64,000 bases of DNA, taken from NCBI RefSeq assembly GCF_053078305.1, contig NZ_CP166879.1. The stretch is one strand, 5' to 3'. The notes under the pieces were generated by a model, which was given only the letters and a program-made list of their open reading frames with translations, was not told the origin of the DNA and ran no database searches. The translations under genes and the position numbers were made by a program. This document shows, in pieces, positions 25,045 through 25,628 of the stretch. Numbering within the stretch: the first letter of the stretch is position 1; every line of letters starts with the position of its first letter.

Positions 25045-25350
25045 TTAAGCATGAGGCGAAATTTCTGCCGGGCGGTATTTTGTTGAGAGATGAGATACGT
25101 CAACTTCTCTTTCCGCTTTTTCGAGGCTCCATGCCGTCTGGAGACGAATCCATGAAGACGGAGTTCCACCCAGGACAGCAGCGAGACGAACAGCCATTTC
25201 AGGAGATATTGTCGCATTACCTGAAACCAGTCGCTGAACAGTGGAAGGCGCGACATCAAGCGCTCTTGCCAGTTCCCTGATTCCAATATTCTGATCTTCC
25301 AGAATATCAGCAATAATTTCTCCGGGATGAGGGGGGTTAAACATCGCCAT
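25045..25350 (-). CDS. higA: HigA antitoxin (HTH/XRE)
   Basis: 101 aa MAMFNPPHPGEIIADILEDQNIGIRELARALDVAPSTVQRLVSGN..., typical HigA. Confidence 0.8.
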   Translation of the reverse strand: MAMFNPPHPGEIIADILEDQNIGIRELARALDVAPSTVQRLVSGNATISPEMAVRLAAVLGGTPSSWIRLQTAWSLEKAEREVDVSHLSTKYRPAEISPHA

Positions 25351-25628
25351 TAGTGGTAATCCTCGTAGTTAAGAATATAAGCATCGCCGTTCCGAAACTC
25401 GAATGTGATTCTCCAGTTACCGGAGACGGTGACAGACCATGTATCGGATCTGTCCCCCTGCAACTGGTGCAGCCTGTACCCGGCAAGGTTAATATCATCA
25501 ATGATTTCAGCTTGATCTATTACCTGAAGGCGCGTTCTCAGGCGTTTAACGTGATTGGGATTTACGCCTGATGCATTTCCTGTTTCAAAGAAACGTTGAA
25601 GTCCTTTGTGTTTCCAGCTTTTTATCAT
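25350..25628 (-). CDS. higB: HigB toxin (RelE/ParE superfamily)
   Basis: 92 aa from MIKSWKHKGLQRFFETG...WRITFEF...YEDYH; toxin-first arrangement, stop overlaps higA start. Confidence 0.8.
   Translation of the reverse strand: MIKSWKHKGLQRFFETGNASGVNPNHVKRLRTRLQVIDQAEIIDDINLAGYRLHQLQGDRSDTWSVTVSGNWRITFEFRNGDAYILNYEDYH

Follow-up and report, generated by a model that had tools for sequence, protein, structure and literature searches.

A toxin-first higBA module of the Rts1 type in a Shiga toxin 1 prophage at wrbA of Escherichia coli

Results

Organization of the higBA locus

The window analysed here is a 64-kb stretch (64,000 nucleotides) of Escherichia coli contig NZ_CP166879.1 (RefSeq assembly GCF_053078305.1), in which an initial annotation had placed a higBA toxin-antitoxin (TA) module at positions 25045 to 25628. 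The list of open reading frames (ORFs) shows that two minus-strand ORFs fill this interval exactly, 25045 being the plus-strand first base of the higA stop codon and 25628 the A of the higB ATG, so that the proposed boundaries are exact to the base. The proposed toxin-first order also holds: higB precedes higA on the same strand, and the two genes overlap by 1 nt, with one base common to the higB stop codon and the higA start codon (TAATG). The TAATG overlap, together with a higA Shine-Dalgarno sequence embedded in the final codons of higB, suggests that translation of higA is coupled to translation of higB. The coordinates of these and all other features are collected in Table 1.

A longer, 102-aa form of HigB starting at the ATG at 25658 was considered and rejected, as this ATG lies within the TATAAT −10 hexamer (25662..25657) of the predicted hig promoter and has no Shine-Dalgarno sequence. 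The 92-aa start is preferred because AGGAAA precedes the ATG at 25628 and the 92-aa form can be aligned with HigB of plasmid Rts1 from the first residue to the last. On the other side of the pair, a 42-nt gap separates the higA stop codon from the stop codon of a convergent antirepressor-like gene, with no third ORF. A hairpin between the convergent stop codons (~25020..25045) was discarded as a candidate terminator, since it is no better than shuffled sequences (z = −0.8 and −1.5) and lacks a U-tract. No paralogue of higB or higA is present within the 64-kb window, and the GC content of higBA (0.471) against that of the prophage (0.474) gives no signal of foreign origin.

Table 1. Features of the higBA locus and of the surrounding prophage
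Feature	Position	Strand	Remarks
higB CDS	25353..25628	−	92 aa; starts MIKSWKHKGL; TAA stop 25350..25352; RelE-like, predicted ribosome-dependent mRNA endonuclease toxin
higA CDS	25048..25350	−	101 aa; stop 25045..25047; helix-turn-helix (XRE-type) antitoxin, presumed autorepressor
higB Shine-Dalgarno	25634..25639	−	AGGAAA; 5 nt before ATG; kept in all four sister loci
higA Shine-Dalgarno	25360..25364	−	GAGGA; within final higB codons, 9 nt before ATG; read from sequence
Predicted higBA promoter	25657..25684	−	−35 TTGCGC (25684..25679), 16-nt spacer, −10 TATAAT (25662..25657); predicted from sequence
O1-like operator candidate	25669..25685	−	GTTGCG-catta-CACAAC; 5/6 complementary; overlaps −35; at −57 from ATG; from 6-N5-6 scan
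O2-position element, degenerate	25640..25656	−	GATTCA-cgtaa-CGCAAC; 3/6 paired
Antirepressor-like ORF (left neighbour)	24265..25002	+	PHROG anti-repressor, 7e-95
isrK promoter	25692..25721	+	TTGACA-18-TATATT; near-consensus, 11/12; faces away from higB; not part of the TA pair
isrK-like RNA	25728..25801	+	Rfam 53 bits, above gathering threshold; own terminator
C4 antisense RNA	25827..25910	+	Rfam 70.1 bits, above gathering threshold
ORF6N antirepressor gene (right neighbour)	25963..26640	+	PHROG anti-repressor, 2e-121; behind isrK and C4
hicA	14977..15222	−	82 aa; 100% identical to PGAP-annotated HicA; Pfam HicA_toxin, 1.5e-11
hicB	14636..14977	−	114 aa; 99% identical to PGAP-annotated HicB; Pfam HicB, 1.1e-19
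stx1A	6696..7652	−	Shiga toxin 1 gene of the prophage
stx1B	6416..6685	−	Shiga toxin 1 gene of the prophage

Identity of HigB and HigA

HigB matches the Pfam family PF05015 (HigB-like_toxin) at 2.3e-21 over model positions 1–91 of 91, and PHROG 3066, described as 'toxin of TA system', at 6e-37. Its best matches among solved structures are the HigB chains of the Rts1 complexes, 4mct_B (2.9e-32) and 4mcx_B (~3e-32), with 56 of the 92 residues identical (61%) in a gap-free alignment. Specifically, H54, N71, R73, D90, Y91 and H92 of Rts1 HigB are identical at the same positions in HigB of the window. Cleavage of mRNA by Rts1 HigB needs His54, Asp90, Tyr91 and His92, while Arg73 steadies the transition state and Asn71 adjoins His92 (PMC5027501). 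HigB scores below the cut-off of the RelE/StbE subfamily model TIGR02385 (17.2 bits versus 27.9), which identifies it as a HigB rather than as RelE proper.

HigA passes the NCBIfam equivalog model for HigA, TIGR02607, with 88.4 bits against a cut-off of 47.7, and contains an HTH_3 domain (2.3e-9). The closest solved relative is PDB 2icp, named 'antitoxin higa' (7.9e-28, 51% identity over 88 residues). This entry and 2ICT, which we take to be HigA of E. coli CFT073, have the same HTH_3-type fold as HigA of the window, but the protein was solved alone. HigA of the Rts1 complex (4mcx_A) is more remote, with an E value of 1e-19 and 42% identity; the alignment is gap-free over residues 2–88 and retains both Arg40 and Thr37. 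In the Rts1 HigA-operator structures, Arg40 makes the sole base-specific contact (PMC12266136).

The initial annotation had described HigB as a RelE-like toxin and HigA as an XRE helix-turn-helix antitoxin, and had named a search with hidden Markov models as one means of checking; the domain matches of both proteins are far beyond chance, and the structural relatives of each agree with the assignment. The Rts1 system (4MCT/4MCX, 4YPB, 9CHL) is the closest characterised relative, sharing the toxin-first order, the 92-aa length of the toxin and all six HigB residues named above. The Pfam families and the gene order are also shared by GraT-GraA of Pseudomonas putida (6F8S) and by HigBA of P. aeruginosa (6JPI/7CSV), both of which are distant, with E values of 6e-5 for the toxin and 3e-12 to 3e-8 for the antitoxin. 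The identity of the pair as HigBA is secure; its enzymology can be predicted by analogy with the close, characterised homologue.

The public record reaches the same assignment. HigB is identical to RefSeq WP_000597785.1 (RelE/ParE family toxin) and HigA to WP_001240641.1 (HigA family antitoxin), and each exact sequence is listed under these names for at least 1000 public contigs. In addition, PGAP and the annotation of phage GER2 make the same call, the label in GER2 being 'plasmid maintenance system killer HigB'. The higBA pair described here is thus already known, publicly annotated, and an ordinary member of a thoroughly studied TA family.

The hig promoter and operator candidates

Upstream of higB, a putative sigma-70 promoter is followed, after its −10 hexamer, by a leader of ~22 nt that includes the ribosome-binding site. 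A scanner for consensus promoters missed this promoter, whose −35 hexamer matches the consensus at only 3 of 6 positions. The layout TTGCxx-16/17-TATA(A/G)T is nonetheless common to the aligned upstream regions of four comparator higBA loci, namely an Rts1-type locus (L007), an E. coli chromosomal locus (L005), an E. coli plasmid locus (L006) and a Pantoea locus (L009). All four also carry two inverted repeats of 6-N5-6 form, at −57 to −62 and at −29 to −32 from the ATG, the second being paired at 5 or 6 of 6 positions. Two repeats per locus agree with the published finding that HigA binds two operators, which overlap the −35 and −10 elements of the hig promoter (PMC12266136).

In the window, the 6-N5-6 template drawn from the comparator loci picks out an O1-like repeat over the −35 hexamer, as in Rts1, with arms GTTGCG/CACAAC in place of ATTGCA/TGTAAT. 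This site was found only with that template: a strict inverted-repeat search of the hig promoter found nothing there and returned only an unrelated palindrome at 25745..25760. As a single repeat it is not significant by shuffling (P = 0.33), and its support is positional and comparative. In an alignment of four near-identical loci, the arms are conserved in OkiPb01683 while the 5-nt spacer and the flanks differ, and kept arms with a varying spacer would be the pattern expected of a protein-binding site.

The element at the O2 position is degenerate in the window, in contrast to the Rts1-type arrangement. At 25651 the window has A (ACGTAACGC), while three sister loci have G, giving the palindrome GCGTAACGC; this substitution might weaken autorepression. 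The Rts1 operator bases C-30, G-24, G-8 and C-2 could not be reconciled in numbering with the 6-N5-6 repeats of the window. HigA is a presumed autorepressor of the hig promoter.

Distribution and variation of the module

Among 5426 complete E. coli genomes, 21 carry the whole higBA module, 20 of these at a DNA identity of 99.3–99.6% and OkiPb01683 at 96.6%. In a further ~46 genomes, higA is accompanied by no more of higB than its last 23 nt, and ~26 have distant higBA alleles that are ~71% identical. Both proteins are identical to those of the window in each of the two sister E. coli loci examined, S19-651 and OkiPb01683, and the intact-module genomes and GER2 share the same isrK-C4-antirepressor neighbour. 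In several of the genomes, however, the cassette and the adjoining isrK-C4 unit occupy the nin region of a lambdoid Stx1a prophage, in contrast to the early-left region of a wrbA phage here; the difference in placement indicates that the cassette moves between phage backbones. Among 50,697 deposited phage genomes, HigB of the window type is encoded in six, GER2 and five Mannheimia phage records.

In PA2, PA8, VT2phi_272 and many Stx2a and Stx1a phages, the segment corresponding to window positions 25373..25691 is replaced by ~700 bp; what is left of the module is the final 23 nt of higB and a complete higA of 99% identity. The PA2-type insert has one ORF for an 85-aa ParD-like ribbon-helix-helix protein and another for a 65-aa lipoprotein (phage PA2, locus L002, 3146–4180), so that two orphan antitoxin genes become neighbours. 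On the right, the breakpoint of the replacement falls within the isrK promoter (25692–25706). The slot beside isrK, C4 and the antirepressor gene is therefore a variable cassette site, at which a minority of related Stx phages have an intact higBA and most have an orphan higA with a ParD-like gene.

A more divergent allele in E. coli Z1323MEC0001 (the chromosomal comparator, 1205–1356), whose proteins are 56% and 51% identical to those of the window, has the same back-to-back promoter core. Specifically, TTGACA...TATATT faces away from TTGCAC...TATAAT, with the hexamers conserved and the spacers diverged. The divergent promoter there drives an unrelated 92-aa ORF, without isrK or C4.

Prophage setting and neighbouring genes

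The host is E. coli, as the torS-gfc region of the window is 99.5% identical to E. coli chromosomes. The first ~30.6 kb of the window are prophage, whose integrase gene (29330..30664) abuts wrbA (30661..31239). The best NCBIfam subtype model for the Shiga toxin genes is Stx1c (724 bits versus a cut-off of 718), and two tandem copies of an STnc100-family small RNA (6122–6333 and 5847–6060) follow the stx1 genes.

As the initial annotation had proposed, higBA lies in a prophage accessory region, here the early region that lies downstream of gam/recT/exo, with the recombination genes on one side and int on the other. Its description of the pair as convergent to the flanking phage genes is correct for the left, higA-side antirepressor-like ORF, but not for the right side, where the unit of isrK, C4 and the ORF6N antirepressor gene is divergent. 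Its further proposal of a second type II TA system in the same prophage is upheld by hicAB, whose identity values and Pfam matches are given in Table 1; the intact hicAB pair (14636..15222) is located in its immunity-proximal part.

The near-consensus isrK promoter drives the isrK-like and C4 RNAs, which precede the ORF6N antirepressor gene. The layout of isrK, C4 and this gene resembles the c4-ant immunity region of phage P1, and paired substitutions occur in the C4 stems among sister loci. The tRNA-like strings (GGTTCGAATCC) in 25660..25960 were rejected as tRNA fragments, as ARAGORN found no tRNA in the window and Rfam assigns the segment to the isrK and C4 RNAs. A second antirepressor-type ORF is present on the plus strand at 16886..17524, with its C-terminal 113 aa 71% identical to the ORF at 25963..26640, and is preceded by a match to sRNA-Xcc1 (16757–16845, 65.9 bits). 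The prophage thus contains two RNA-led antirepressor units, one led by sRNA-Xcc1 and one by isrK and C4. Elsewhere in the prophage, a perfect 9-nt tandem repeat, CCAGTGCAG, occurs 7.1 times at 28149–28212 (plus strand) and encodes PVQ repeats in the ORF at 27957..28355; this stretch could be a length-variable region.

Discussion

We consider it very probable that the two genes form a functional type II HigBA module of the Rts1 (Proteus vulgaris) type, carried as an opposite-strand accessory cassette by a Stx1-converting prophage at wrbA of E. coli. The Rts1 module itself is carried by a conjugative plasmid, in contrast to the prophage carrier here.

By homology with the Rts1 system, the module would work as follows. 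Transcription from the predicted promoter (25684..25657) would place higB and higA on one mRNA, with translation coupled at TAATG. HigB would enter the ribosomal A site and cut mRNA at A-rich codons, as expected from its 61% identity to Rts1 HigB and the retained residues. In the reaction, His54 would act as the base, Arg73 would stabilise the transition state, and Tyr91 would be aided by Asp90 and His92. A HigA dimer would bind and neutralise two HigB monomers, while its helix-turn-helix, in which Arg40 is kept, would bind the inverted repeats over the hig promoter, one good and one degenerate, and repress transcription.

Antitoxins are typically more labile than toxins, and a role in prophage stabilisation or in exclusion is therefore possible. 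HigB would be set free, and translation arrested, if the prophage were lost or host gene expression blocked, and the outcome may be an addiction or stabilisation device, a superinfection or abortive-infection device, or both. Addiction, in the sense of prophage retention, and phage exclusion are each plausible and are not mutually exclusive.

Several points weigh against the interpretation of the pair as a functional module of the Rts1 type. HigA shares only 42% identity with its Rts1 counterpart and has substitutions at two phosphate contacts (T34A and S23G), so that details of operator recognition are not transferable. The second operator position is degenerate, with 3 of 6 positions paired and a G-to-A change at 25651 private to the window. 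The deletion of higB with retention of higA, in ~46 complete E. coli genomes and ~50 deposited Stx phages, indicates that the toxin is dispensable and often lost. A search of PADLOC-DB v2 gave no match to HigB, leaving a defence role without backing from that library; HigA had weak, generic helix-turn-helix matches only (E values of 3e-4 or more). Finally, our literature search returned no experiment on this higBA allele and nothing specific on the module in Stx phages.

The main role of the pair could be anti-phage abortive infection or superinfection exclusion guarding the lysogen, rather than addiction, with shut-off of host expression, or another depletion of HigA, on infection freeing HigB and the arrest of translation preceding completion of the invader's cycle; this is possible, though we hold it only tentatively. 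Such a role would fit the location of higBA in a prophage accessory region alongside hicAB, and its orientation opposite to the phage genes with a promoter of its own, as is usual for an accessory cassette expressed in the lysogen. It would also be in line with HigBAC of E. coli NT1F31, a HigBA-containing system that aborts lambda infection in E. coli (bioRxiv 10.1101/2024.02.24.581848) and was the sole one with demonstrated anti-phage activity found in the literature search. HigBAC likewise combines a HigB-type, translation-targeting toxin with a HigA antitoxin. However, HigBAC depends on the SecB-like chaperone HigC, its phage sensor, and on a HigA with a chaperone-addiction tail, while no third gene accompanies higBA here, and the lack of a PADLOC match for HigB also speaks against a defence function as the main role.

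That the pair is decaying or domesticated, with HigA selected for a role as transcription factor or as anti-addiction antitoxin against HigB encoded elsewhere and HigB a dispensable passenger of low activity, is unlikely. The precise deletion of higB from PA2, PA8, VT2phi_272 and many Stx2a and Stx1a phages, in which higA is 99% kept, is what such a process would leave behind, and higA-only genomes outnumber those with the intact pair (~46 versus 21 of 5426); the occurrence of this type of HigB in only six deposited phage genomes points in the same direction. The frequent loss of higB with higA retained suggests that selection may maintain higA independently of the toxin, for instance as a guard against HigB copies elsewhere. 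In the window itself, however, neither ORF is disrupted and HigB retains every catalytic residue. HigB is furthermore identical in S19-651 and OkiPb01683, which lie in different prophage backbones (lambdoid nin region, as against the wrbA phage here), and the exact sequence recurs on at least 1000 contigs. Intact ORFs, protein identity in sister loci and this wide occurrence together argue against decay.

We likewise give little credence to the proposal that the divergent promoter of the isrK-C4-antirepressor unit is a further target of control by HigA, or by the HigB-HigA complex, which would tie the state of the TA pair to the antirepressor switch. A gap of 7 bp separates the −35 hexamer of the hig promoter (25684..25679, minus strand) from that of the isrK promoter (25692..25697, plus strand), and 6 bp lie between the latter and the end of the O1-like repeat. 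The back-to-back core is kept beside the 56%/51% protein-identical allele of Z1323MEC0001, and higBA is contiguous with isrK-C4 in all 20 of the intact-pair genomes listed. Yet linkage, together with a recombination hot spot, explains the juxtaposition equally well, and in Z1323MEC0001 the divergent promoter drives another gene. No candidate binding site overlaps the isrK promoter hexamers. Furthermore, PA2-type phages keep the isrK promoter where the hig promoter and higB have been replaced, indicating that the isrK unit works without a hig operator.

Also improbable is the broader proposal that the hig and isrK promoters form one conserved back-to-back control region, in which occupancy by HigA or HigBA would tune the antirepressor RNA and protein, or in which antiterminated early-left transcription at induction would run antisense through higA and higB, coupling the TA state to the lysis-lysogeny switch of the Stx prophage. 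The back-to-back promoter geometry is unusual, and is the single feature of the locus beyond the ordinary.

The practical value of the finding is modest: a Stx1 prophage with two intact type II TA systems, which may affect retention of the prophage in Shiga toxin-producing E. coli. If the back-to-back promoters proved to be regulatory, a TA module would be linked to the control of Shiga-toxin phage induction.
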